32,278 nucleotides of DNA from a virus (taxonomy: Duplodnaviria; Heunggongvirae; Uroviricota; Caudoviricetes), in the IMG/VR virus record IMGVR_UViG_2897375277_000010; one strand, 5' to 3'. Below, in pieces: positions 10,551-32,278 of this stretch. Both the position numbers and the translations under genes were made by a program. The stretch's first letter is position 1. The number at the start of each line of letters is the position of its first letter. Below the pieces are notes generated by a model. It had not been told where the DNA came from and made no database searches. It was given only the letters and a program-made list of their open reading frames with translations.

Positions 10551-10898
10551 TCAACTCACAGGGATGGTTAACGAAAGTGGCTGGCCGGTGTCGTTGTGCT
10601 GGCCGGTTAACGTGACCGTCATTCGCCCGTCAAAGCTGCGCGCCGTGGTGACGGATGACAGGGTGACGCGGGGTTCCCATTTCAGCACCGCCATGTAACA
10701 GGCGACCTTAATCTGCAACTCAAGCGCCGGGGTCTGCGGCTGGTCAATCATTGATGCCAGCAACGAGCCGTAATCACGACGCATCACCCGTGAGCCGACC
10801 GGTGTGCGCAGGATATCGCCGATACTCTGGCTGATATGCTCAAGGTCAGTGACAGTCAGGCCATCACTGCGATTCATTCCGAGATAACGTGCTGTCAT
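10551..10898 (-). CDS. W: Baseplate wedge protein W (GPW/gp25 family), 115 aa
   Basis: 115-aa ORF between V and J; P2 gpW length. Confidence 0.85.
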   Translation of the reverse strand: MTARYLGMNRSDGLTVTDLEHISQSIGDILRTPVGSRVMRRDYGSLLASMIDQPQTPALELQIKVACYMAVLKWEPRVTLSSVTTARSFDGRMTVTLTGQHNDTGQPLSLTIPVS

Positions 10899-11530
10899 TT
10901 TGTCCCCTGCGTCCAGCTGTCACCTGACTTAACACCACCGTGACCGTGGTCATCCACCTGAACGCCGTTAGACGTGAATTTCCCGTCGGTATGCGCGATG
11001 TTGCCGCGCATCGTCCCGCCCTTCTGCACTTCCAGCGTGCCGGTAGTCAGTTTGTTGGTGCAGACCACCTCCGGTGTGTCCAGGGTGATGCGGGTTGATG
11101 CTTTCACCATAACCACCGGCACCGAGGCAGTAACAGAATCAGAAGCCGTCACGCTGGCCGTTTTAATTCCGCTTACCGTGAGTGCACTGGTTTCGGGTTC
11201 ATACTCAATCACCGCCCCGTCAGGGAAACGGATATGCAGGGCATCCGCCGACGCAGACGGTGCGGGGTTATCGCCGGAATAAATCCCCGGCAGAACGAAC
11301 GCCGTGTCGAGTTCACCGCCCACGGCCAGAATCAGCACCTGTTCCCCCACGGAAGGTGCCCACCATGTGCGCGAACGTCCTGCACGATGGGTCAGCCACT
11401 GAAGCCAGTCAGTGCACATGCCGCCGGTCTGCACACGGCAGCGACCGGCGTTAAGGTCGGTTTCGACGACAAGGCCGGTGCGGATCATGTTGCGTATAAA
11501 GCGAAGTATTTCATTGTATTGTGTATTCAT
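10895..11530 (-). CDS. V: Baseplate spike protein V, 211 aa
   Basis: ORF track extends to 11608, but the internal ATG at 11528-11530 gives a 211-aa product (MNTQYNEILRFIRNMIRTG...) matching P2 gpV length; the upstream extension would overlap the divergent promoter region. Confidence 0.8.
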   Translation of the reverse strand: MNTQYNEILRFIRNMIRTGLVVETDLNAGRCRVQTGGMCTDWLQWLTHRAGRSRTWWAPSVGEQVLILAVGGELDTAFVLPGIYSGDNPAPSASADALHIRFPDGAVIEYEPETSALTVSGIKTASVTASDSVTASVPVVMVKASTRITLDTPEVVCTNKLTTGTLEVQKGGTMRGNIAHTDGKFTSNGVQVDDHGHGGVKSGDSWTQGTK

Positions 11531-11616
11531 TCGAGAATGATGATTCTGTACAATCTCGAAGTAAATCACGTCACGCTTTTTGGTGCACAGAACAACAAGG
11601 AACAACAAAATCCATT
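11531..11616. promoter_or_regulatory. Divergent intergenic region: expected late promoter for V-W-J-I-H-G and promoter/RBS of the divergent cargo gene
   Basis: 86-bp gap between the V start (minus) and the cargo ATG at 11617 (plus); AAGGA at 11597-11601 upstream of that ATG; promoter assignment is by position only. Confidence 0.4.
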
Positions 11617-12690
11617 ATGAATATTTGCTTTTTTTCATCAGAAACAACTAAAAGATTGCTCAAAGATTACCAAACCTTTTTGGAGAACCTTACCCCTGAC
11701 ACAGATTTTGAATCAGGCCGAAACAAAATAATCATTCAAGCAATAGACTTCATTTCAAAAAAACCAGAAGATTGGGACGAAAAATCCCTACACAGCATTA
11801 AAAGACTCGGCGATGAATTTAAAAGATTACTAAAAGAAAAGGGAGATAATGAAGACAGCATCAATCTTATATTCACTTATTTCCTTAGGTTCATTATTGA
11901 ACCAAGCATTTTCTCTACAGAAGTAGAGTCACCCGACTCACTCCCAGAATACATCAAAGATTTCGCTCAGTATAACTATGGTAAATTCGATACTCGAAGC
12001 CAAAAAAGCATAGATATATCTCTAAGAGGAATGCCATTAGCAATAGCTAAGGAGATTCTAAGCTCTGGCAATGTGGATACATATAAAAAATATCTCAATA
12101 AGTTAAACGAAGGCCATAAACTTCTCGAAGAATATGATTCTACCTTCAAAGAACAACAGGCTAAAGTAGAGTCAATTAAAGAATCATTAAAGGGATACGA
12201 GACTGCTTTCAATTTCGTTGGACTCTTTGATGGCTTCAATTCACTTGGCAAAAAGAAAGCGAATGAAATTTTAGCATCAAGACTCATTCTTATTTTTTTA
12301 GCTATAATTATTCCATCCCCCTTAATATATTATGGCATTCACAAATTACCGGCCCTCGAAGCAACAAATGCTGCCACATATTTCATGTCAGCGCTACCTT
12401 TTGCATCAGTTACATTGATTTTCATGTATTACTTTAGAGTTGTACTGATAAATCACATATCGTTACGAACTCAGATTATGCAAATAGAACTTAGAAAGAC
12501 CCTTTGTCAGTTCATTCAGAGTTATAGCGACTATTCCTCAAAGATAAAGAAAAACAACCAAGATGCTCTTTCAAAATTTGAAGATGTAGTATTTTCAAAC
12601 ATCATGCTATCCGATGATAAGATACCATCTACATTTGATGGCATTGAACAAATAGCATCGCTAATCAATTCACTGAAAAATGGCAAGTAA
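11617..12690 (+). CDS. AT-rich cargo protein, 357 aa, with two predicted transmembrane helices near the C-terminus; function unknown
   Basis: ORF track 11521..12690 starts at a GTG that overlaps V; the first ATG is at 11617 (MNICFFSSETTKRLL...). Coding sequence is visibly AT-rich against the GC-rich flanking tail genes. Hydrophobic segments LILIFLAIIIPSPLIYYGI and ATYFMSALPFASVTLIFMYYF; Lys/Glu-rich helical N-terminal domain. Occupies the P2 orf30 position between S and V, on the opposite strand. Confidence 0.7.
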   Translation: MNICFFSSETTKRLLKDYQTFLENLTPDTDFESGRNKIIIQAIDFISKKPEDWDEKSLHSIKRLGDEFKRLLKEKGDNEDSINLIFTYFLRFIIEPSIFSTEVESPDSLPEYIKDFAQYNYGKFDTRSQKSIDISLRGMPLAIAKEILSSGNVDTYKKYLNKLNEGHKLLEEYDSTFKEQQAKVESIKESLKGYETAFNFVGLFDGFNSLGKKKANEILASRLILIFLAIIIPSPLIYYGIHKLPALEATNAATYFMSALPFASVTLIFMYYFRVVLINHISLRTQIMQIELRKTLCQFIQSYSDYSSKIKKNNQDALSKFEDVVFSNIMLSDDKIPSTFDGIEQIASLINSLKNGK

Positions 12691-12692
12691 TA

Positions 12693-12727
12693 GTAAAAGA
12701 CCACCTCCTGAGGAGGTGGCTTTTCAG
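12693..12727. terminator. Bidirectional rho-independent terminator between the cargo gene (+) and tnpA (-)
   Basis: Perfect 8-bp stem CCACCTCC/GGAGGTGG with a 3-nt loop (12701-12719), flanked by GTAAAAGA on the left and CTTTTCAG on the right, giving a T-run on either strand. Confidence 0.6.
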
Positions 12728-12772
12728 AATGCCCCCTATAAGGGGGGGAGGGCGAATGTCATATTCCGTTTT

Positions 12773-13207
12773 CTACTCTAGCAACTCCATCTGCTGTTCA
12801 TGTGTTTGTTCCATCTTTTCCTGATGCCTCACATATCGTCTGATAATTTCTTCGTTCACGCCTACCCTATCAACAAAGTAACCCCGCGACCAAAAATGGT
12901 TTCCCCATAACTTCTTCCTGATATGCGGGAATCGATTGTAGAGTCTGATTGCACTGCGACCTTTCAGATGCCCCATCAGAGTAGATATTGAGATTTTTGG
13001 CGGCACTATTACGACAAGATGCACATAATCTGGCTGTACATTTAACTCCAGAACCTCGCAATCTTTTATTCCGCAAAGAATATAGATGGTTCTGTACAGC
13101 TCCTTGCCCAATTTATCCCTCAGGATCCTAAAGCGGTACTTTGGCGTCCAGACTATGTGATATTTGCAATGCCAATATACATGTGATGAACTTCTGTAAA
13201 GCCCCAT
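12773..13207 (-). CDS. tnpA: IS200-family transposase TnpA (HUH Y1 transposase), 144 aa
   Basis: ORF 12773..13264; likely start at ATG 13205-13207 (MGLYRSSSHVYWHCKYHIVWTPKYR...). Contains the HUH-type motif YVHLVVIVPPK and the downstream Tyr region WSRGYFVDRVG characteristic of IS200 TnpA. Confidence 0.8.
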   Translation of the reverse strand: MGLYRSSSHVYWHCKYHIVWTPKYRFRILRDKLGKELYRTIYILCGIKDCEVLELNVQPDYVHLVVIVPPKISISTLMGHLKGRSAIRLYNRFPHIRKKLWGNHFWSRGYFVDRVGVNEEIIRRYVRHQEKMEQTHEQQMELLE

Positions 13208-13428
13208 GTCAGTTTGTCTCCTTTTACTTGTGGTGAGTAAGCAGAGATATTCCGACATGGGCATTCTTCAGGCTATAGCCTTACAGGTTCAATCACCACC
13301 TCCCTAGTAGGTGGTTTAGGGATAACAATAAAAGGCCAATAACTGGCCTTTTATTTATTAACGTAAAAACTCAAAATAAACCATGCTAAATCAAATGATT
13401 TCATTTTTATATTCTCAGATGATTAAAG

Positions 13429-22938: not shown

Positions 22939-23478
22939 TCAATCATCATGATGAGAGAACCTAGCATTTACTATTCTTGAGTGAAGATTGTTTGCAAATG
23001 ATAAGTTGCTTAAAATAACACTAAACACACACTTTATTTGTAACCAGCACATAAAATAAACAAAGGTGATTCCAATCATTCTAATAAGATCAGAATACAC
23101 CACTGAACTCGATAGCACAGAGCCTATTGATTTAAACAGATAAACAAACAAGATCGAAAGCATTACTACTGCTGAAGTAATTACAACGTAAATTAGCTTT
23201 TCAATTCGAGGTGCATCTTTCGTATTCTTTATGTAATCAACATCATCATTGACAATGCTTGCAATTGCATTCGGATATAAAAAACCAATCCATAATCCAA
23301 CTATGGTAAAAATTGCAGCAGATATGTTTTGCAAAACACCCAGTATATCTTTTATATCACTATAGTTAACATGAGCTTTCAGCCAATAGGAGGCCGCAGC
23401 AATTAGAAACAGAATTAACAAATTCCATTTCCATTGTATTATCAATGCCTTTAAATCCTTACTTGTTTGAGGTGACAT
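22939..23478 (-). CDS. Predicted four-helix integral membrane protein, 179 aa; candidate effector of a two-gene cargo operon
   Basis: ATG at 23476-23478 immediately follows the TAA of the upstream gene (TAAATG); four hydrophobic segments of about 20 aa each; strongly AT-rich. Confidence 0.75.
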   Translation of the reverse strand: MSPQTSKDLKALIIQWKWNLLILFLIAAASYWLKAHVNYSDIKDILGVLQNISAAIFTIVGLWIGFLYPNAIASIVNDDVDYIKNTKDAPRIEKLIYVVITSAVVMLSILFVYLFKSIGSVLSSSVVYSDLIRMIGITFVYFMCWLQIKCVFSVILSNLSFANNLHSRIVNARFSHHDD

Positions 23479-24489
23479 TTATGCCTCCGCCGTTTTTAAA
23501 GATTTTTCTTCCACCTCTTCATTATAAAGGATTGTTTGGAGTAAATCATCACGAACAGCCTTTATTTCATGAAGGAGTTTTTCTGGAGAGAAATGCTCAT
23601 CCCCGGTAGAATCGCTGACAATTAATGCAGTTCTCGCCATATATTTTTTTAACCATAATGGGCGAGATGAATCTTTAAGAACAAAGCCAACATCAACCCA
23701 GTCAACATCATCTACATTTCTATCCAATAGTTGTTTTATTTCCTCTTCCGAAGGAGCGCCATCTACTCGAACCTCAATTTTTTTAGGTTTTGTAAACTTG
23801 GTTTGTTCTGTTCCCAAGAAATCCGATAGTACATTACTCACCAGACGTAATAACGGTTGCCGGGTATCCTCAACTTTTGCAACCGTAGTATCACGAATAA
23901 TTGTCTGAACAATTTTATCTCGTACATCAAGAATATTCGTCCCTGGTTTATTAACCTTCGTCACTTCAGCCTTAAATTTAAAAACGCAATTACACTTGCG
24001 TCCATTTTCATCTACATGCTTGAAAATTGTTTTAGAAATAAGAATGTCATCTTCCGAACATGAAGAACGAGCTCTAGTAAATGAGGTAGTATCCTTTTCC
24101 CTACCAAAATCACCGTGATTTACTACAAAATTAAAAATATAATTGCTTAACCTCGGTGTATCTGCACCTGAATGAGGAAATATAATGGATGCAATCTTGT
24201 TATATTCAGGAATTATCCAATAATAACATGGCTCAACCCAAATATAGTCTTTTCCATTCGTTTCTGTCTTTACTGTATCATTTTCTGTAGCACCAACAGG
24301 TGCGTTTTTTTTAACAGCGTGCAAACGTCCCTTCGCGGAACCTAATGCACGATACATTACCATCACCCGATCTTTTGTATCTGGATCGACAGCCACTCCT
24401 CGTGAGTAAGTTCTGGCTCTTAGCGGATGAGTTCCCGTATCCCACGGAATTGACTCCTCAACGCTTTTGTCATCAAGCCAAGCCTGCAA
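23479..24489 (-). CDS. Soluble cargo protein of unknown function, up to 336 aa (292-294 aa if started at the ATGs at 24363 or 24357)
   Basis: Long AT-rich ORF; first in-frame start is a TTG at 24487-24489 with no Shine-Dalgarno sequence, and internal ATGs lie at 24361-24363 and 24355-24357. No motif assignable by eye; tightly coupled to the downstream membrane protein. Confidence 0.7.
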   Translation of the reverse strand: MQAWLDDKSVEESIPWDTGTHPLRARTYSRGVAVDPDTKDRVMVMYRALGSAKGRLHAVKKNAPVGATENDTVKTETNGKDYIWVEPCYYWIIPEYNKIASIIFPHSGADTPRLSNYIFNFVVNHGDFGREKDTTSFTRARSSCSEDDILISKTIFKHVDENGRKCNCVFKFKAEVTKVNKPGTNILDVRDKIVQTIIRDTTVAKVEDTRQPLLRLVSNVLSDFLGTEQTKFTKPKKIEVRVDGAPSEEEIKQLLDRNVDDVDWVDVGFVLKDSSRPLWLKKYMARTALIVSDSTGDEHFSPEKLLHEIKAVRDDLLQTILYNEEVEEKSLKTAEA

Positions 24490-24763: not shown

Positions 24764-24970
24764 CTATCGTCTGCGTGGTGGTGGCGCAACTCTGGACTGA
24801 CCGATATAGTTAAACCGCCCGTAATTATCCCGGACTATTTCGGCACACCCGACTAGCTCATCGGGCGTCAGATTTTCGTTGACCATAATCTGCTGTAGAC
24901 GGTGAACAATGGCCATCAGCTTGATATTTTTAGTTTTATGGTGCGGTATCTCGCCTGGTATTCTGTGCAT
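24764..24970 (-). CDS. Small hypothetical protein, 68 aa, translationally coupled to the upstream ASCH-like gene
   Basis: ORF track 24764..24982 begins at a GTG; the ATG at 24968-24970 overlaps the upstream stop (TAATG); last gene of the early operon before a 274-bp gap. Confidence 0.5.
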   Translation of the reverse strand: MHRIPGEIPHHKTKNIKLMAIVHRLQQIMVNENLTPDELVGCAEIVRDNYGRFNYIGQSRVAPPPRRR

Positions 24971-25425
24971 TATCCAAGCCACCCATTTTGCTTTGCACGC
25001 TCCACCTGTTCATCTGAATAGTTCCATGCTCCATCCGTGGCAACCATTGCCCCGCCAGACATCCCCGTCTCTGGTTCATACATAACAGCAAGGCCGAGCT
25101 GATGCATAATTTCATGATTAATTCTGAATACCAGGCCACGCTCACTAAGTTCTTTCCAGTTCACAATCTTATATGCGCCCGTATTAAGCAGCTCAATACT
25201 TAGCAAGACATAATCTTCCAGCCAGTCTGACAGGTCAGTAACGTCTGTTATCCGGGCTTCAACCTTTCGCCCCGTAAACACACCCTGCACCCATTCATGC
25301 AAAATCAACGTGTCCCCGCGCTCATAATTACGGTCATTTTTCCGAAACTCTGCGCGTTTCTTTCCTTCCAGCACAAGGTCAAAATATTTTGCGTGCAGCT
25401 TTACCTCGTGAATTTTTGCCATCAT
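24970..25425 (-). CDS. ASCH-like (PUA-fold) domain protein, 151 aa, translationally coupled to A
   Basis: ATGATG start at 25420-25425 overlaps the A stop TGA; GGAG upstream; contains GKKRAEFR, which fits the ASCH GxKxxExR signature; the C-terminal part carries an HEIMH (HExxH) motif. Confidence 0.65.
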   Translation of the reverse strand: MMAKIHEVKLHAKYFDLVLEGKKRAEFRKNDRNYERGDTLILHEWVQGVFTGRKVEARITDVTDLSDWLEDYVLLSIELLNTGAYKIVNWKELSERGLVFRINHEIMHQLGLAVMYEPETGMSGGAMVATDGAWNYSDEQVERAKQNGWLG

Positions 25426-27707
25426 TTCCACTCCATTACTGTTGAAAATCCCGGCCACTCATCAGCGACCGGATACGTGAATTTTTTCCCGTCATAATTT
25501 ACGGTTGCGCCACGCGCCAGCGCCTCAAGCTCCCATCGCTGCGGCCTGATACCGTTCTGAGCAAGGTCAACGCGGATACGGGTAATTTGCATTCGTTCCG
25601 ACCGGGTCAGTCTGGCAGATGGTGCAATTTCATGCGGTTTTAACGGGCTTCCGTTTCTTTGCTGACGGTTTGATGTTCTCAGGCCGTGTTTTAATGCACC
25701 CCTGAGCGCCCTCACGACCTCCGGGTCATTCCATTCGATAACACCGTCATCAACCAGATTAAGCACTGCTGCGGCGTGCTCAGAAGGTGTGGGAGCCGGT
25801 AACGCAGTATCACCGCCGGTGAGCTTTCCACAGTTATTGACAGGACTCCGAGGCGCGGCGATGCCGCTTTTTAAAGTCAAAGGCTCAACGACAGGAACTT
25901 TCGGAACAATGCGCCAGTCCGTGGTTCTGGTGATATGAATATGACGCGCGCCGAGATGCGGCGCGTAAATGCCGACCACTCTCTCGACTTCTTCCTCGTA
26001 CTCGTTAACGTCATCCGACGGGCTACGGGCGACCCTGACAGTCTGACAATCGCGCGGGACATTTGCCCCGCCCTGCGCGCTGATATACAACGCAAAATCA
26101 CCACTGTCTGCAGCGGCGCGTGCAGCCTCGACGCGCTCGTCAAACTCATCAGCAATGCTGACGCCGCGAGGCAATTTGCGTAGTTCACGGTAAGCCCCCA
26201 TTGTCGGCAGACCAACCGTTTTAAATTGCGGGATGCGCCACGTTGACGCCCATGCGGTAACAGCCGCGGCAGTATCTTTCAGCGGTCTGCCGGTATCATT
26301 ATCGAGCTGACCATCCAGTGCATAGCCGTCGATATTTTTTGAGATGTATTTCGCGATATACCCCGCAGCACCGCCCCGGTTAAGATGTTTTGCCTGAAAA
26401 CGGTTTCGCGCGGCTCCTCTTTCGTCTCCATCCTCTTTGAGCGCGTAGCGACGCATGATTTCAATAATCTGGTTACGCTGGCGTGGATTACAAAAAAGCA
26501 TCATATGCCAGTGCGGCGTTCCGTCGTGGTGTGGCTCGACGACACGCAAACCGTAGACCTGTAAATCATTATCCTTGAATGCCGTGCGCATCAGGCTCCA
26601 GATACGGCAGAGATAACGCTGCGCATCCTTTGGATTAAATGCCTCATCGTTCCAGCCGTGATTAAGCTGCACGGTTTTACTTTCGCCTTTTCCGACCTGA
26701 CGTGTCGGGTGATACTTTGACGGCGCGGTCAGCGTGATAAACATCCCCACATCGCCCTCTGCGGCGGCGTAACGCTCAATACCGGCAATGGTGTTCATCA
26801 ACTCCATCCGACGAATTTCAGGATTAGAAATACTGCCCATCACCTTACTGATAAGGTCGATGCGCTCGCCGGTTTCCCTGTTTTCGAGGTCACACGATTT
26901 AAGAAATTCCAGATTTGCCTGGCGGCGAGCACGCACATCACGAATGGCGTGTTTACTGGCATAAGGAGAACGGTCTTTATTCACCTCCCCGACAGCAATC
27001 AGTAACGCCTCATGCCAGCGCATACGCTGGCCTTTAAGCTGATGAGTCCACCACTCATCGTTAAACAGACGGGCAATGGCAGAATATGCCTGCCTCGTGG
27101 TCATCAGTCCTTTACGGTATTTTTTCCAGTAGAGAGGGGAAATATTGAAAGCACGTGCAGCGCCAGCAACATGACCATAGAGGTGAGCCTGCGCCTCATC
27201 CGTAAACAGCGATTCTTTCTCGCCATGCGCATCCACCCAGGCATCGCAGAGTTCCCCATACATCATGAAAAGCTGTGATGAGATACGGGCGGCAAACTTT
27301 TTCAGCTCCTTGTCATTCATCCCCGGCAGGCGCGCATACTGGTCGCGCTCTGCCAGAAACAGCAACGACGCGTCGGTGTTCATTTCATGGCGCTGATTCA
27401 CGCGCTCAATGCGCGGCCATAAACGACGCTGAAAAGTGGATGTGAGGAAATAAAACCCGTGCACCGGGCTTTTATTGCGCCGGATGTAGTCATAGCGTGA
27501 AGTAAACAGCGAGCGCAAAAAGTAAGGCAGGCGGTTAATCGTGGATAAAACACCTTGCACCTGACGCATCTCGTCACGTGTAAGGGGTCTTTCGCGCCCG
27601 ACAGCCTCGCGTGGCGCGTTCCATGCATAAGCACCGGTAAACGCCTTACCGGTGCCTGCAGCAAATGCTGACGGAGGGACAAAACGCCCGGAGGCTTTAA
27701 CGGTCAT
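25422..27707 (-). CDS. A: Replication initiation protein A (rolling-circle nickase), 761 aa
   Basis: ORF track 25422..27749; start chosen at MTVKASGRFVPPSAF... (ATG 27705-27707) to give the P2 gpA length of 761 aa. Confidence 0.88.
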   Translation of the reverse strand: MTVKASGRFVPPSAFAAGTGKAFTGAYAWNAPREAVGRERPLTRDEMRQVQGVLSTINRLPYFLRSLFTSRYDYIRRNKSPVHGFYFLTSTFQRRLWPRIERVNQRHEMNTDASLLFLAERDQYARLPGMNDKELKKFAARISSQLFMMYGELCDAWVDAHGEKESLFTDEAQAHLYGHVAGAARAFNISPLYWKKYRKGLMTTRQAYSAIARLFNDEWWTHQLKGQRMRWHEALLIAVGEVNKDRSPYASKHAIRDVRARRQANLEFLKSCDLENRETGERIDLISKVMGSISNPEIRRMELMNTIAGIERYAAAEGDVGMFITLTAPSKYHPTRQVGKGESKTVQLNHGWNDEAFNPKDAQRYLCRIWSLMRTAFKDNDLQVYGLRVVEPHHDGTPHWHMMLFCNPRQRNQIIEIMRRYALKEDGDERGAARNRFQAKHLNRGGAAGYIAKYISKNIDGYALDGQLDNDTGRPLKDTAAAVTAWASTWRIPQFKTVGLPTMGAYRELRKLPRGVSIADEFDERVEAARAAADSGDFALYISAQGGANVPRDCQTVRVARSPSDDVNEYEEEVERVVGIYAPHLGARHIHITRTTDWRIVPKVPVVEPLTLKSGIAAPRSPVNNCGKLTGGDTALPAPTPSEHAAAVLNLVDDGVIEWNDPEVVRALRGALKHGLRTSNRQQRNGSPLKPHEIAPSARLTRSERMQITRIRVDLAQNGIRPQRWELEALARGATVNYDGKKFTYPVADEWPGFSTVMEWK

Positions 27708-27972: not shown

Positions 27973-28193
27973 GCCGTTCTCCGGTAATGTTTGTTTTTTG
28001 CTTCAAAGACTGACTGGCAGGAAACACAACGCGTGGCTGACGGATAAGCCGCACGACGGGCAGCAGGTATTGGCGCGTCACACTCTTCGCAAACCAGCGC
28101 AGAAGCACCGCAATGTTTTACCCTTGCCGCGTTAATCTGGCGCTCCAGTAATTCAGCTTGTTGTTCCTGAATAAAATCTACGTTGTCCGGCAT
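27969..28193 (-). CDS. TraR/DksA-type C4 zinc-finger protein, 74 aa (P2 orf82 position)
   Basis: Cys-x2-Cys...Cys-x2-Cys arrangement (VCEECDAPI...RCVSCQ) in a 74-aa protein; GC-typical composition; ATG overlaps the upstream stop. Confidence 0.7.
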   Translation of the reverse strand: MPDNVDFIQEQQAELLERQINAARVKHCGASALVCEECDAPIPAARRAAYPSATRCVSCQSVFEAKNKHYRRTA

Positions 28194-28483
28194 TACCAGT
28201 TCCTTTTGTCGTTCAGTTTCTTAAATTCATCAGCGCAATAGCTGGTGACTTCTGTCGTTAATTTTGTCAGTTCATCCACGGAGGAAATTTGCTTATGAAA
28301 TACAGCGCGTTTAACAAGTAAATTGACCACATCAGACAGGAGATTTAATTTATCCGCATAAATGGCTATAGTTGATTCAACCATATCCCCAGTGTTTTTA
28401 TCGCGTTTAATATCAGCTAGCGACAAATCACCATTTTTCATAACTGAAATCTTCAGCCAGTTATTAAGCAATATATTTTTCAT
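28193..28483 (-). CDS. AT-rich hypothetical protein, 96 aa (early-operon moron)
   Basis: ATG at 28481-28483 overlapping the upstream stop (ATGA); AT-rich; no recognisable motif. Confidence 0.55.
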   Translation of the reverse strand: MKNILLNNWLKISVMKNGDLSLADIKRDKNTGDMVESTIAIYADKLNLLSDVVNLLVKRAVFHKQISSVDELTKLTTEVTSYCADEFKKLNDKRNW

Positions 28484-28725
28484 TCGCTATATGCCCTCTC
28501 CGCAGAATCAATCATTTCCCGGCCATTATCGGTAATACAGAAACCTTCTCTTGATTTGGTCACAAGCCCCCATTTCCCCATTGCTATAAATGCTTTTTCC
28601 ACACGACTAGGCCAGGAGCGGAAGACATCGCTTGATGGATGTAGTGGAGTCTTGTCATCTAATTTTTTAAGTAATGAAAGTTGATAATCTGTTAAGCGTT
28701 TCCTGAACCATTTTGTATTTGTCAT
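28480..28725 (-). CDS. Hypothetical protein, 81 aa (early-operon moron)
   Basis: ORF track starts at a TTG (28731); ATG at 28723-28725 is preceded by AGGAAAG; no recognisable motif. Confidence 0.5.
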   Translation of the reverse strand: MTNTKWFRKRLTDYQLSLLKKLDDKTPLHPSSDVFRSWPSRVEKAFIAMGKWGLVTKSREGFCITDNGREMIDSAERAYSE

Positions 28726-29015: not shown

Positions 29016-29516
29016 TTAATGCAGATATTGCTCTGGTTTTACCGACGTCAGAATTGTCGGTGCATACTCAAACAGACTGAATAATTCACGTAATGCACGG
29101 AATAAAGCATCACGCCAGTAACATGATTCTTCATTAATTCGCCAGTACGGCTGGTTAAATTCTTTTTCTGTCAGTCGTGCGTGCATAAATAAAGTACGGC
29201 GCTGACTGACTGTTAAAAAACTAATATATGCATACTCACTTGCACCGACCTGACGACGTTTTGAGAATGCCCCACGCAATTCATCAATTGCACAAACCAG
29301 CCGTTCACGTTCGACGTCGTTCATTTCTTCAAAACGCATCGTTGCGTGACGCTGTTTTAACTGCGCATGGAAGCAAACTGTTAGCCGTTCGCGCTCCATC
29401 ATCTGATTATAATAATCACATGTATCCTGCCAGCGAGGAACGGCAAGATGCTTACCAATTATCCGGCGCATAGCTGCTGGCTGTTTTTCAACGAGATTGA
29501 GCGTCATCACTGTCAT
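29016..29516 (-). CDS. B: Replication protein B (helicase loader), 166 aa
   Basis: 166-aa ORF (MTVMTLNLVEKQPAAMRRIIGKH...), P2 gpB length; ATG at 29514-29516 overlapping the upstream stop. Confidence 0.85.
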   Translation of the reverse strand: MTVMTLNLVEKQPAAMRRIIGKHLAVPRWQDTCDYYNQMMERERLTVCFHAQLKQRHATMRFEEMNDVERERLVCAIDELRGAFSKRRQVGASEYAYISFLTVSQRRTLFMHARLTEKEFNQPYWRINEESCYWRDALFRALRELFSLFEYAPTILTSVKPEQYLH

Positions 29517-29683
29517 TTCCAGACCCTCCGGCTTTTCAGAAAGGTCAGAGCCTTCTTTAACGAACTCTGTTTTTTGGTGCGGATAATGATTCCCTTGCGT
29601 CCTTTCCCGTGGGTGATGGTGAAGTCAATCGCCCTAGGGCTTTCGTTACGCAATAACTGAGCAATACAACGAGGTTCCTGCAT
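29513..29683 (-). CDS. Small basic early protein, 56 aa (P2 orf78 position)
   Basis: ORF track 29513..29761 starts at a TTG; the ATG at 29681-29683 is preceded by a strong SD (AGGAGGAG, 4-nt spacing); stop overlaps the B start. Confidence 0.6.
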   Translation of the reverse strand: MQEPRCIAQLLRNESPRAIDFTITHGKGRKGIIIRTKKQSSLKKALTFLKSRRVWK

Positions 29684-29783
29684 AACTCCTCCTGAAACAG
29701 AGCCGGTTTTTAGCCATGTCCGGCACATGGTCTTGTGGTAAGATCGAATCGCCAAAAACAACCAACCACAAGCGAGGTAATAA

Positions 29784-29978
29784 ATGAATAATCAAAATAT
29801 TGACGAACTTATAACCACTCTCGAAAAAGCGGTTGCATTAGCAAATACCCTACCAACTCCAATGGGAGATTTTGAGGACGCTAAAAAAGTGGATGAATTA
29901 ACTATTCAATTAAGAGAGATCATTCACCCTAAAAAGCCAGTCCAACTCAAAGGCTTTATTGATATAAATCATTTTTAA
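29784..29978 (+). CDS. Antisense small protein, 64 aa, hydrophilic, AT-rich, with its own promoter-like and RBS signals
   Basis: ATG at 29784 preceded by GAGGT with 6-nt spacing; an extended -10-like TGgTAAGAT at 29735-29743; convergent with, and overlapping by 23 bp, the 154-aa minus-strand gene. Confidence 0.45.
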   Translation: MNNQNIDELITTLEKAVALANTLPTPMGDFEDAKKVDELTIQLREIIHPKKPVQLKGFIDINHF

Positions 29979-30420
29979 AATAGCATCTTGCATCCGTATG
30001 CTGTTTATACGGATGCGTCATCATGTCAAAAATACTTTTCCAGTCATCAAGCCCTATTGACCATTTAATACTATTTATATCGCCTGATTTAGAAATTATC
30101 GTTTCACGAAGAGCCTTAGCGAGTTCCATGCGCTCTTGAACGGTCATACCAACGCATTCATATTTAATGCGCAAAAAAGAGTCATGAAATAAAGATTTCA
30201 AATTCAGCCGTAGAATTTCTTCATCACCATCTGAACTAATAAAAACAAGTTCATCATTATCCAAAATGATATTTTGTTTTCTCAATTCATCGGCTGATTT
30301 ATATTCTTTCGTACTATTAGCAAACTCACTATACGTAATAGTCAGGCTGTTAGATGGTGATGCATCTTCAAGGTTTCCTCTGATGATAGTCACCGATGTT
30401 TTATTTAAATCTTGCCTCAT
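29956..30420 (-). CDS. AT-rich hypothetical protein, 154 aa, translationally coupled downstream of cox (moron)
   Basis: ATG at 30418-30420 preceded by AAGGAGGAG, which directly follows the cox TAA stop; AT-rich; acidic Asp/Glu-rich protein with no recognisable motif. Confidence 0.7.
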   Translation of the reverse strand: MRQDLNKTSVTIIRGNLEDASPSNSLTITYSEFANSTKEYKSADELRKQNIILDNDELVFISSDGDEEILRLNLKSLFHDSFLRIKYECVGMTVQERMELAKALRETIISKSGDINSIKWSIGLDDWKSIFDMMTHPYKQHTDARCYFKNDLYQ

Positions 30421-30429
30421 GGCTCCTCC

Positions 30430-30786
30430 TTAGGCCGCGTGGCCATGTCTGGATTTGCTGTAACTTATGCGGTTCTTCCAGTCATGCCATTCTGTCGGAG
30501 CTTCATCGACTAGTTGAGCTGCATATTTGTCCCACTCACGACGATTAATCCATAACTCAGCGTGACCGCCCGGCTTTAACGGGTCTGTCATATAGAATGC
30601 TGGCAGCTTTCCAGCTCGTGCCATTTCAGCCACCGCACGAGGAGTCTTACCGATGTAAAGAGCAAAACCCTCTTTCGACAGTAAATCTGACGGATCCGCA
30701 GCCAACTTAATGGAATCACGCTTGTTTTTTTTAAGAGCAGAAACTTCTTGTCTTTTCTCGTCACAAATTTCAGATCCGACATTCAT
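30430..30786 (-). CDS. cox: Cox-like excisionase/early repressor (HTH), 118 aa
   Basis: First gene of the minus-strand early operon, divergent from C; region YIGKTPRAVAEMARAGKLPAFYMTDP resembles the P2 Cox HTH region; GAGGAT RBS 7 nt upstream of the ATG at 30784-30786. Confidence 0.7.
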   Translation of the reverse strand: MNVGSEICDEKRQEVSALKKNKRDSIKLAADPSDLLSKEGFALYIGKTPRAVAEMARAGKLPAFYMTDPLKPGGHAELWINRREWDKYAAQLVDEAPTEWHDWKNRISYSKSRHGHAA

Positions 30787-30889
30787 TTTGCTATCCTCAC
30801 ATTGATGTCAGCGATCTAGAGCGATTTAGAGTCGTTAGATGCTGATAAATCATATCAACTATGCAAAAGAATACGAGGTTAGAGAATTT
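30787..30889. promoter_or_regulatory. Lysis-lysogeny switch region (divergent Pe/Pc promoters and putative C operator repeats)
   Basis: 103-bp gap between divergent cox and C; tandem 10-bp direct repeats GCGATCTAGA / GCGATTTAGA at 30811-30830, reminiscent of the direct-repeat operators bound by P2 C. Confidence 0.5.
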
Positions 30890-31189
30890 ATGTCAACTGA
30901 CACTAGCGAACGTTTGAAGCTTATCCGTGAGTCTGAACGTCTGAAAATGAAGGAGGTAGCTGAACTAGCTGGCATCAACTACACCACATATGCAGGTTAT
31001 GAATCAGGTAAGGCTATGATGTCCCTAGAAAATGCTAAGAAGTTTTTTAAAGTAGAAAGGTTCAGAAAATACCGTGACTGGTTCATGTTTGATGAGACAG
31101 ATCCCGCTGCCGGACAAATAGCCCCGGCGCTCGCACACATTGGGCAAGACTCAACAACCTTGCACCACTCAGACCAAAAGACTGGCTGA
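30890..31189 (+). CDS. C: Immunity repressor C (HTH), 99 aa
   Basis: ORF track 30839..31189; ATG at 30890-30892 with GAGG upstream gives 99 aa; C-terminus ...GQIAPALAHIGQDSTTLHHSDQKTG recognised as P2 C-like; upstream of int. Confidence 0.8.
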   Translation: MSTDTSERLKLIRESERLKMKEVAELAGINYTTYAGYESGKAMMSLENAKKFFKVERFRKYRDWFMFDETDPAAGQIAPALAHIGQDSTTLHHSDQKTG

Positions 31190-31282: not shown

Positions 31283-32278
31283 ATGTCTATTAAAAAGCTC
31301 GATGATGGTCGTTATGAAGTGGACGTCAGGCCGCAGGGTGCAGATGGAAAACGTATCAGGCGGAAATTTAAAACTAAAGGTGAAGCCCAGGCATTCGAGC
31401 GTCATGTCCTGGTTAACTACCACAACAAAGAGTGGTTGGAGAAGCCGGCCGACCGCCGAACTCTTACAGAGTTGTTAGGCAGATGGTGGATATATCACGG
31501 AAAATCACATGAGCGTGGAGATATTGAACGGGGGCGTTTGACGACAATAATTGCCAAATTTGCTGAGATGGGAGTGTCCAGGGCGGACCAGCTAACAAAG
31601 AAAACGATAACTGATTATCGCGTTGTAATGATGAACGACGGTCTAAAACCAGCCAGCGTAAATCGGCATCTGGCAATAATGAGCGGGATGTTCACCAAGT
31701 TAATTGACGCCGGTGAATATCACTCTCACAACCCGTTCCGTGAGGTGAAGCGGTTACGTGAAGCTGTTACGGAAATGGCTTTTTTGTCCAGTGAAGAGAT
31801 TACGCGGCTGCTATCCATGCTTGATGGTGATGAATTAAATGCGACTCTGGTCTGCCTTTCTACTGGTGGACGCTGGAGTGAAGTGTCTAATTTAAAAGCT
31901 GAACACATCATTAACCAAATGGTTACGTTTATGAAAACCAAAAACGGAAAGCGCAGGACAATTCCCGTTTCGCAGGACTTGATTAAACGGATCAAAACCA
32001 AAAATTCTGGCAGGCTTTTTAATGCCAGTTACTACAAAGTGCGCAACGCTCTCAGGGAAGTAAAACCCGATTTACCTGACGGACAGGCAGTGCATGTTTT
32101 GAGGCATACATTTGCCACACATTTTATAATGAATGGAGGTAACATAATCACATTGCAGCGCATCCTGGGTCATTCTAACATTCAGCAAACTATGACCTAC
32201 GCACACTTTGCACCGGATTTCTTACAAGATGCTGTGACTCTTAACCCGGTGTCAGGAATGTCCATAATGCGTCCATAA
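31283..32278 (+). CDS. int: Tyrosine site-specific integrase, 331 aa
   Basis: N-terminus MSIKKLDDGRYEVDVRPQGADGKRIRRKF... P2 Int-like; C-terminal catalytic region HVLRHTFATHF...LGHSNIQQTMTYAHF carrying the His/Arg/Tyr residues of tyrosine recombinases; reads outward at the prophage end. Confidence 0.9.
   Translation: MSIKKLDDGRYEVDVRPQGADGKRIRRKFKTKGEAQAFERHVLVNYHNKEWLEKPADRRTLTELLGRWWIYHGKSHERGDIERGRLTTIIAKFAEMGVSRADQLTKKTITDYRVVMMNDGLKPASVNRHLAIMSGMFTKLIDAGEYHSHNPFREVKRLREAVTEMAFLSSEEITRLLSMLDGDELNATLVCLSTGGRWSEVSNLKAEHIINQMVTFMKTKNGKRRTIPVSQDLIKRIKTKNSGRLFNASYYKVRNALREVKPDLPDGQAVHVLRHTFATHFIMNGGNIITLQRILGHSNIQQTMTYAHFAPDFLQDAVTLNPVSGMSIMRP

Follow-up and report, generated by a model that had tools for sequence, protein, structure and literature searches.

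Two convergent genes and a promoter-like element that recurs in other phage cassettes form a low-GC insert within the early operon of a P2-like prophage

The window analyzed here, that is, the whole stretch of 32,278 nucleotides of the IMG/VR virus record IMGVR_UViG_2897375277_000010, ends in the switch region of a P2-like (Peduovirus) prophage, as identified from the list of open reading frames and their matches to Pfam and PHROG families (Table 1). In this region the gene of the C immunity repressor diverges from an early operon that opens with cox, and Pe, a candidate early promoter recognized by its match to the consensus, lies between C and cox, in keeping with a P2-type switch; no other strong promoter-like site precedes cox and the gene that follows it. 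The second gene of the operon (X) faces a convergent gene (Y) preceded by a promoter-like element (PY), and X, Y and PY form a cassette beyond which the operon resumes with a homologue of orf78 that shares 96% identity with orf78 of L-413C and has its own Shine-Dalgarno sequence (CAGGAGGAGTT-ATG). Since orf78, B and A lie beyond the cassette, transcription from Pe must cross X and, in antisense, Y and PY.

Table 1. Coordinates of the features in the switch region at the end of the window and further copies of the PY element.
Feature	Position	Strand	Basis
Integrase gene (int)	31283-32278	+	
C immunity repressor, 99 aa	30890-31189	+	Pfam HTH_3 6.6e-08; PHROG 147 2.6e-36
Candidate early promoter Pe, facing the C gene	30868-30896	-	TTGACA, 17-nt spacer, TATTCT; consensus scan 10/12
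cox, 118 aa, opening the early operon	30430-30786	-	Pfam Phage_Cox 8.6e-29; PHROG 1831 1.2e-60
cox stop TAA and overlapping Shine-Dalgarno sequence AAGGAGGAG	30421-30432	-	Direct sequence reading
X, 154 aa, second gene of the early operon	29956-30420	-	ORF; homologues always directly after cox
Hairpin GCATCCGTAT / ATACGGATGC, within the 3' coding end of X	29989-30017		RNAfold -17.4 kcal/mol, z = -3.7
Y, 64 aa, convergent to X	29784-29978	+	ORF; homologues beside X in every X locus
PY, promoter-like element and leader of Y	29700-29783	+	Near-invariant across phages; promoter function inferred
Cassette, 746 bp, cox stop to orf78 start	29684-30429		Comparison with empty sites (L004 and 111 other contigs)
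orf78 homologue, 56 aa, where the early operon resumes	29513-29683	-	phrog_273 5.9e-40
gpB replication gene, 166 aa, same operon further downstream	29016-29516	-	phrog_235 3e-104; annotated gpB in L-413C
Further copies of PY	L001, L003, L010-L016, L018-L035, L152, L023:2870-2896, L023:3406-3432		

A preliminary description of this DNA had presented X as an AT-rich gene for an acidic protein without recognizable motifs, lying directly after cox behind a strong Shine-Dalgarno sequence, and most of these statements stand. The cox-X junction on the minus strand reads TAA-GGAGGAGCC-ATG, so that 9 nt separate the cox stop codon from the ATG of X, whose strong Shine-Dalgarno sequence overlaps that stop. 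The composition is not uniform with that of the neighbouring genes, since the GC content is 0.338 (33.8%) in X and 0.367 in the cassette, compared to 0.471 in cox, 0.480 in orf78 and 0.513 (51.3%) in the window, and only 5% of the windows of 746 nt are as AT-rich as the cassette. The acidity of the predicted protein turned out to be only mild, with a pI of 5.2 and 25 aspartate and glutamate residues against 20 lysine and arginine residues. The expression of X together with cox, also put forward in that description, can be deduced from the layout, given the 9-nt gap and the fact that a consensus scan predicted no promoter between the two genes, and X is thus probably co-expressed with cox from Pe. 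X matched no family in Pfam, PHROGs, PADLOC or NCBIfam (no PHROG match was better than E = 0.28), nothing was found when all 19 X homologues were compared with Pfam and PHROGs, and profile searches of the PDB sequences with X and Y returned nothing below E = 0.1; homology and fold searches assigned no function to either protein.

Relatives of X became visible only by sensitive comparison. A word-indexed search with X as the sole query recovered its own cluster only; true relatives at 34-44% identity were found by an exhaustive HMMER search, and a follow-up profile search delimited a family of 19 protein clusters, all of them annotated as hypothetical and drawn from Enterobacterales (E. coli, Citrobacter, Yersinia ruckeri, Salmonella, and Kluyvera). 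Two other HMMER matches were discarded, namely the 412-aa repeat protein P0006 (E = 4.6e-7), for which hhalign gave a probability of 4.5%, and P0004, which on inspection is a low-complexity protein with a long simple repeat. Because length and conserved motifs are kept across the 19 clusters down to 31-40% identity, the genomic position is constant, and dN/dS is about 0.2-0.4 (two close pairs with small counts), X is, as far as sequence conservation can tell, a real gene rather than a chance ORF.

Alignment with empty sites places the 746-bp insert exactly between the cox stop codon and the ATG of orf78, with AGGAGGAG flanking it on both sides on the minus strand (30423-30430 and 29686-29693). 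Where the site is empty, only 6-14 nt separate the cox stop from the orf78 start, as shown by L-413C and by a relative sharing the 118-aa cox type. The sample used to survey this interval across P2-like relatives comprised 114 evaluable IMG/VR contigs with the orf78 type of the window, and the site was empty in 111 of them (about 97%), the remaining three carrying an insert that was in no case the X/Y insert. The latter occurs in 4 of 5426 complete E. coli genomes and, in an identical form (100%), in Escherichia albertii NBRC 107761 = DSM 17582, and neither X nor Y had a tblastn match among 50,697 deposited phage genomes. The absence of the insert from most relatives indicates that X is dispensable, accessory and moron-like, in agreement with its earlier designation as a moron. 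Morons are accessory inserts with their own transcription signals. Presence or absence among close relatives and a deviant GC content (0.367 vs. 0.513) characterize the insert as a whole; as for its own promoter and terminator, X has neither of them, and the candidate signals of Y are its conserved extended -10 element and a downstream hairpin free of a U tract.

Other compositional and accessory features were observed elsewhere in the window. In the classic gpA-portal cargo hotspot, PADLOC indicated a candidate PDC-M18 defence system consisting of 179-aa and 336-aa ORFs (22939-24489, minus strand; B 7e-17, A 8e-27) that form a low-GC island. A further low-GC island (11352-13165) lies beside the spike gene (10895-11608, minus strand) and includes an IS200-like Y1 transposase (12773-13264, minus strand; 1.2e-38) with a neighbouring 389-aa ORF (11521-12690, plus strand) that has no Pfam match, and this island probably arose by insertion of an IS200/IS605-type element into the tail region. 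Just downstream of gpA there is a gene for a 162-aa protein with ASCH/DUF3850 and DUF7415 matches (24970-25458, minus strand), whose start lies within the 3' end of the listed gpA ORF. In the early operon, a second and mildly AT-rich stretch (28100-28700, GC 0.36-0.40) covers orf81/orf82-like genes (ORFs of 96 and 83 aa; DUF5405 region).

The convergent gene Y, its promoter-like element PY and the cassette nature of the locus had been overlooked in the preliminary description. Y has the same orientation as C and int and shares 23 nt with X where the 3' ends of the two genes overlap, and homologues with 50-67% identity are found at the same position in every X locus. The Y family consists of 11 clusters from the same taxa as the X family, in three cases apparently from the same contigs. 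The proteins have 62-64 aa across loci, without a transmembrane segment or known domain, and their conserved motifs survive at 50-64% identity; judging from these sequences, Y is a real gene as well. PADLOC (PADLOC-DB v2) returned no match for X or Y, and weak, non-significant matches only for the other cassette proteins.

Seven X/Y loci were compared (the window, L010, L011, L012, L015, L037, and L038), and despite their divergence the gene order was identical in all of them: C in divergent orientation, cox and X, the convergent Y, and then orf78 and B. These loci span three cox types (88-89, 98, and 118 aa) and gpB identities of 62-91%. X diverges faster than Y (31-40% vs. 50-64% identity), and the pairwise identities of the two proteins were poorly correlated (r = 0.32), as exemplified by L012 and L037, which share 37% identity in X but 70% in Y. 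So weak a correlation speaks against a binding pair that has tightly co-evolved. The co-occurrence of X and Y, which holds at the family level without strict co-divergence, could partly reflect physical linkage, and strict co-evolution of the two is not supported. Moreover, the identity of Y tracks the gpB flank (r = 0.79) and that of X tracks cox weakly (r = 0.45); taken with the incongruent phylogenies, these correlations indicate that the two halves of the cassette have recombined.

The segment upstream of Y is more conserved than any nearby coding sequence. The PY consensus, GCCGG-TTTTTAGCCATGnCCGGCRCATGGTCTTGTGGTAnnAT...AAAAACAACCA...GAGG-ATG (about 29700-29783 in the window), includes a 17-bp dyad CCATGTCCGGCACATGG (29714-29730) over the -35 region, an extended -10 element (TGgTAAGAT, 29736-29744), a CA-rich leader, and the Shine-Dalgarno sequence of Y (GAGG, 29774-29777). 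The element is near-invariant across P2-like phages, 186-like phages, SEN5 and one unrelated phage; its 27-nt core (CCATGnCCGGCRCATGGTCTTGTGGTA) barely varies among ten diverse copies and was found as an exact pattern match in 28 of the 151 collected loci. Since there is almost no covariation, PY looks like a DNA signal rather than an RNA fold: reading the dyad as an RNA structure found little support in view of its almost invariant stem, and a search of the PY region in Rfam gave a sub-threshold RNA-OUT match only. With the dyad over its -35 region, PY could need an activator instead of being constitutive. Besides, in 7/7 X/Y loci a stable hairpin lies 13-16 nt after the Y stop codon (about 12 nt for the hairpin of Table 1), inside the 3' coding end of X, where it covers the codons of the conserved (R/H)P(Y/H)(K/R) residues. 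Its stem sequences differ between loci, a U tract is present in none of the seven, and the hairpin could correspond to the 3' end or terminator of the Y transcript, to a processing site or to a pause site. The presence of this hairpin directly after Y in all loci also speaks against PY as a promoter of the pE type from which C and int would be transcribed.

PY is not restricted to X/Y loci, and in other P2-like phages it precedes non-homologous convergent gene pairs at the same slot. In Yersinia phage vB_YpM_115 the cassette contains a 62-aa ORF on the minus strand and a 58-aa ORF on the plus strand, and in E. coli 90-3040 it encodes a 198-aa protein and a 68-aa small protein (Y'). In four 186-like contigs (L018, L021, L025, and L033) a 169-aa CII homologue is followed downstream by a PY cassette, and in L018 and L025 the genes apparently driven by PY are on the plus strand and have no clear partner; the element is absent from phage 186 itself. 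PY was also found in SEN4/SEN5 phages, with the cassette of Salmonella phage SEN5 lying between the repressor and a cox-like gene, and it occurs twice in tandem between the terminase genes of an unrelated phage (tandem units in L023). A metagenome scan revealed no further cassette types. The cassette proteins matched no family in Pfam, PHROGs, PADLOC or NCBIfam, and profile comparisons detected no homology between the cassette types; likenesses perceived by eye between Y and the 62-aa and 60-aa partners, and between a 199-aa protein and the 158-aa protein of SEN5, were not supported by these comparisons. Non-homologous cassettes occur in phages whose C and cox are 98-100% identical, and close relatives have no cassette. 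A 72-bp PY segment was additionally detected on the 88-kb E. coli plasmid NZ_CP134387.1 (hit H41), which suggests the presence of P2-like or cassette DNA on this plasmid.

One C-terminal domain connects some of these proteins. This domain (Z) has about 75 aa. X-Z fusions occur in Kluyvera (P0020, L016:4001-4651) and in the metagenome-derived sequence P0018, and the 198-aa protein (L003:3293-3889) ends with the same domain. A gene of the Y' type was present in every Z-bearing locus inspected (L003, L016, and L161), including L161, in which a truncated 111-aa form retains Z and Y' is retained too, and in the one locus inspected with an X-Z fusion (P0020, L016) the convergent gene is Y' and not Y. 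Domain shuffling among the cassette proteins is apparent from the comparison of these sequences.

The preliminary description had also placed X at the position of orf78 in P2 and of cII in phage 186, but X neither replaces the former nor is a counterpart of the latter. X does hold the place directly after cox that orf78 occupies in P2 and L-413C, but it is unrelated to orf78 and nearly three times as long, and the orf78 homologue exists separately in the window; by sequence comparison, X has been added beside orf78 and does not replace it. Similarly, in the early operon of 186 the cII gene comes immediately behind the equivalent of cox/apl, but hhalign gave a probability of 0.4% for homology between X and CII, and X has no helix-turn-helix or other Pfam match; comparison with the family libraries likewise revealed no homology to a conserved phage regulatory protein. 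A role of X or of its cassette as a substitute for cII was rejected because cII and a PY cassette coexist in the 186-like contigs L018, L021, L025, and L033.

A closer positional parallel is provided by the fil and dhr genes of phage 186, whose products are annotated as a cell-division inhibitor (Fil) and a host-replication inhibitor (Dhr). Like X, they are non-essential and belong to the early lytic operon, in which the switch genes precede them and the replication genes follow, a likeness that follows from the gene order in the window, the annotation of 186 and the absence of X from most relatives; besides, the slot of fil and dhr after cII is the site of the PY cassettes in the 186-like contigs. 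They differ from X in being co-directional and without a convergent partner, and X is not homologous to them, with hhalign probabilities of 0.14% for Fil and 0.16% for Dhr. BstA/aba is an example of a prophage defence with cognate self-immunity, and such effector-immunity pairs possibly follow the same logic as the cassette, with one component made in the lysogen and an early-lytic counterpart; this is an analogy only, and BstA/aba-type systems have no homology to the X/Y cassette. The assignment of X and Y to the type II toxin-antitoxin systems was discarded, as the genes are convergent, with separate promoters, and match nothing in Pfam, NCBIfam or PADLOC. The morons of P2-like phages (old/tin and Z/fun) resemble the insert in being low-GC accessory DNA that is present or absent among relatives. 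In contrast to that cargo, the X/Y cassette lies inside the essential early operon, with X dependent on Pe and Y facing it, and it differs from the cargo hotspots of P2-like phages in having no match to known defence or anti-defence families (the latter as far as Pfam and PHROGs include them) and in occupying a slot that is about 97% empty in the sampled relatives. Surveys of these hotspots have dealt with the gpA-portal and tail (Z/fun) loci and include, without detail, a minor 'integrase-primase' hotspot (PMC13586616; bioRxiv 10.1101/2024.10.15.618418). This minor hotspot is reported to hold 8% of the P2 defence systems (PMC13586616), and the X/Y cassette falls within its interval. Literature searches retrieved no description of the cassette, the PY element or the RefSeq accessions.

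Our preferred reading, to which we assign a probability of roughly 0.35, is that X may be an early-lytic effector and Y its antagonist in the lysogenic phase. In a lysogen, C would repress Pe, so that X would be off and Y would be made from PY; upon infection or derepression Pe would fire, cox and X would be made together, and transcription from Pe running antisense through Y and PY would damp Y by transcriptional interference and antisense pairing. X would then act as a non-essential early effector against a target in the host or in a competitor, like Fil and Dhr of 186 in position, and the putative anti-defence or host-takeover role suggested in the preliminary description remains plausible; Y would be a small antagonist that buffers leaky or incoming X in lysogens. 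This interpretation draws on the architecture of the locus, the coupling of X to cox, the insertion into an otherwise empty site and the low GC content, as well as on the origin of the X and Y families from the same taxa and their identical order in seven loci. It is also consistent with the conserved PY and the conserved hairpin after Y, with the occurrence of Y' alongside the Z domain, in which a small gene is linked to a domain of the large gene, and with the 186-like cassettes in the slot of the host-directed fil and dhr. The lack of a family or PDB match, the incongruent X and Y trees, the dyad over the -35 region of PY, which may denote an activator, and the hairpins without U tracts argue against it.

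The same architecture might be read with the roles reversed, which we consider unlikely: Y would be an exclusion or defence factor of the lysogen that would also hinder the lytic growth of the prophage itself, and X would be an early self-immunity protein that switches Y off upon induction or infection. Such a function would call for abundant early X, as expected from a gene that is the first after cox and has a strong Shine-Dalgarno sequence, and it would accord with the strong conservation of the promoter and leader of Y, the pairing of X and Y at the family level, the faster divergence of X, and the existence of several non-homologous cassettes at one slot, as in an arms race. Nevertheless, Y has only 62-64 aa and lacks a transmembrane segment, a known domain or a PADLOC match, X and Y do not co-diverge, and the X-Z fusion occurs with Y' and without Y. 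The recombination indicated by the incongruent phylogenies and by the different flanks tracked by Y (gpB, r = 0.79) and X (cox, r = 0.45) is what would be expected if the two genes were independent neighbours, Y being a moron with its own promoter and terminator-like hairpin and X an extra early gene, which travel together only through their adjacency and overlapping 3' ends; the plus-strand genes without a clear partner that PY appears to drive in L018 and L025 point in the same direction. This explanation is doubtful, however, considering that the association holds down to 31% X identity in every locus seen, that a large gene facing a small convergent gene recurs in non-homologous cassettes, and that Y' follows the Z domain.

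The coexistence of cII with PY cassettes, the different or missing cassettes beside identical C and cox, the absence of a promoter belonging to X and the convergent arrangement disfavour both a regulatory and a toxin-antitoxin function. It is very unlikely that X regulates the choice between lysis and lysogeny, as a CII-like activator of PY or as an antirepressor, with Y as a brake. Although X lies directly after cox, Y is co-oriented with C and int and the dyad overlaps the -35 region of PY, X has neither homology to 186 CII nor a helix-turn-helix match, the 186-like contigs hold cII in addition to the cassette, C and cox that are 98-100% identical occur with non-homologous cassettes or, in close relatives, with none, and the hairpin just past the end of Y speaks against transcription continuing into C and int. 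A toxin-antitoxin or abortive-infection pair acting as a defence in the lysogen is brought to mind by a low-GC module of two genes, for a large and a small protein, located in a prophage, but it is hardly credible, given that X, without a promoter of its own and behind the C-repressed Pe, should be silent in lysogens, and that the genes are convergent instead of forming a bicistronic operon and have no Pfam or PADLOC match.

Going beyond the X/Y pair, the PY cassettes might represent a previously unrecognized class of switch-coupled two-gene modules with antagonistic products, which are swapped by recombination in their flanks, a proposal that we put forward as speculative and rather improbable. 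The class would include X/Y, the L003-type pair of a 198-aa protein and Y', the L001-type, 186-like and SEN5 pairs, and the tandem units of L023. In each module a portable, near-invariant promoter-leader would drive a small protein in the lysogenic orientation, and a cognate larger protein would be read from the lytic operon, the two acting as effector and immunity or as exclusion and self-immunity factors, with cassettes being swapped among Peduoviridae and at least one unrelated phage via the conserved flanks.

Few carriers of accessory immune cargo have been mapped as well as the P2-like prophages, and the mapping has centred on two or three hotspots. Accessory genes carried in the early operon of a phage are known in kind, and what is unusual here is the convergent, promoter-sharing architecture: a small family of uncharacterized convergent gene pairs inside an essential early operon has one highly conserved promoter-like element in common. 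If the products of these pairs antagonize each other across the switch between lysogeny and lysis, the cassettes would be a compact new way of coupling an accessory function to the developmental state of the phage, and they would add new effector, immunity or anti-defence proteins.
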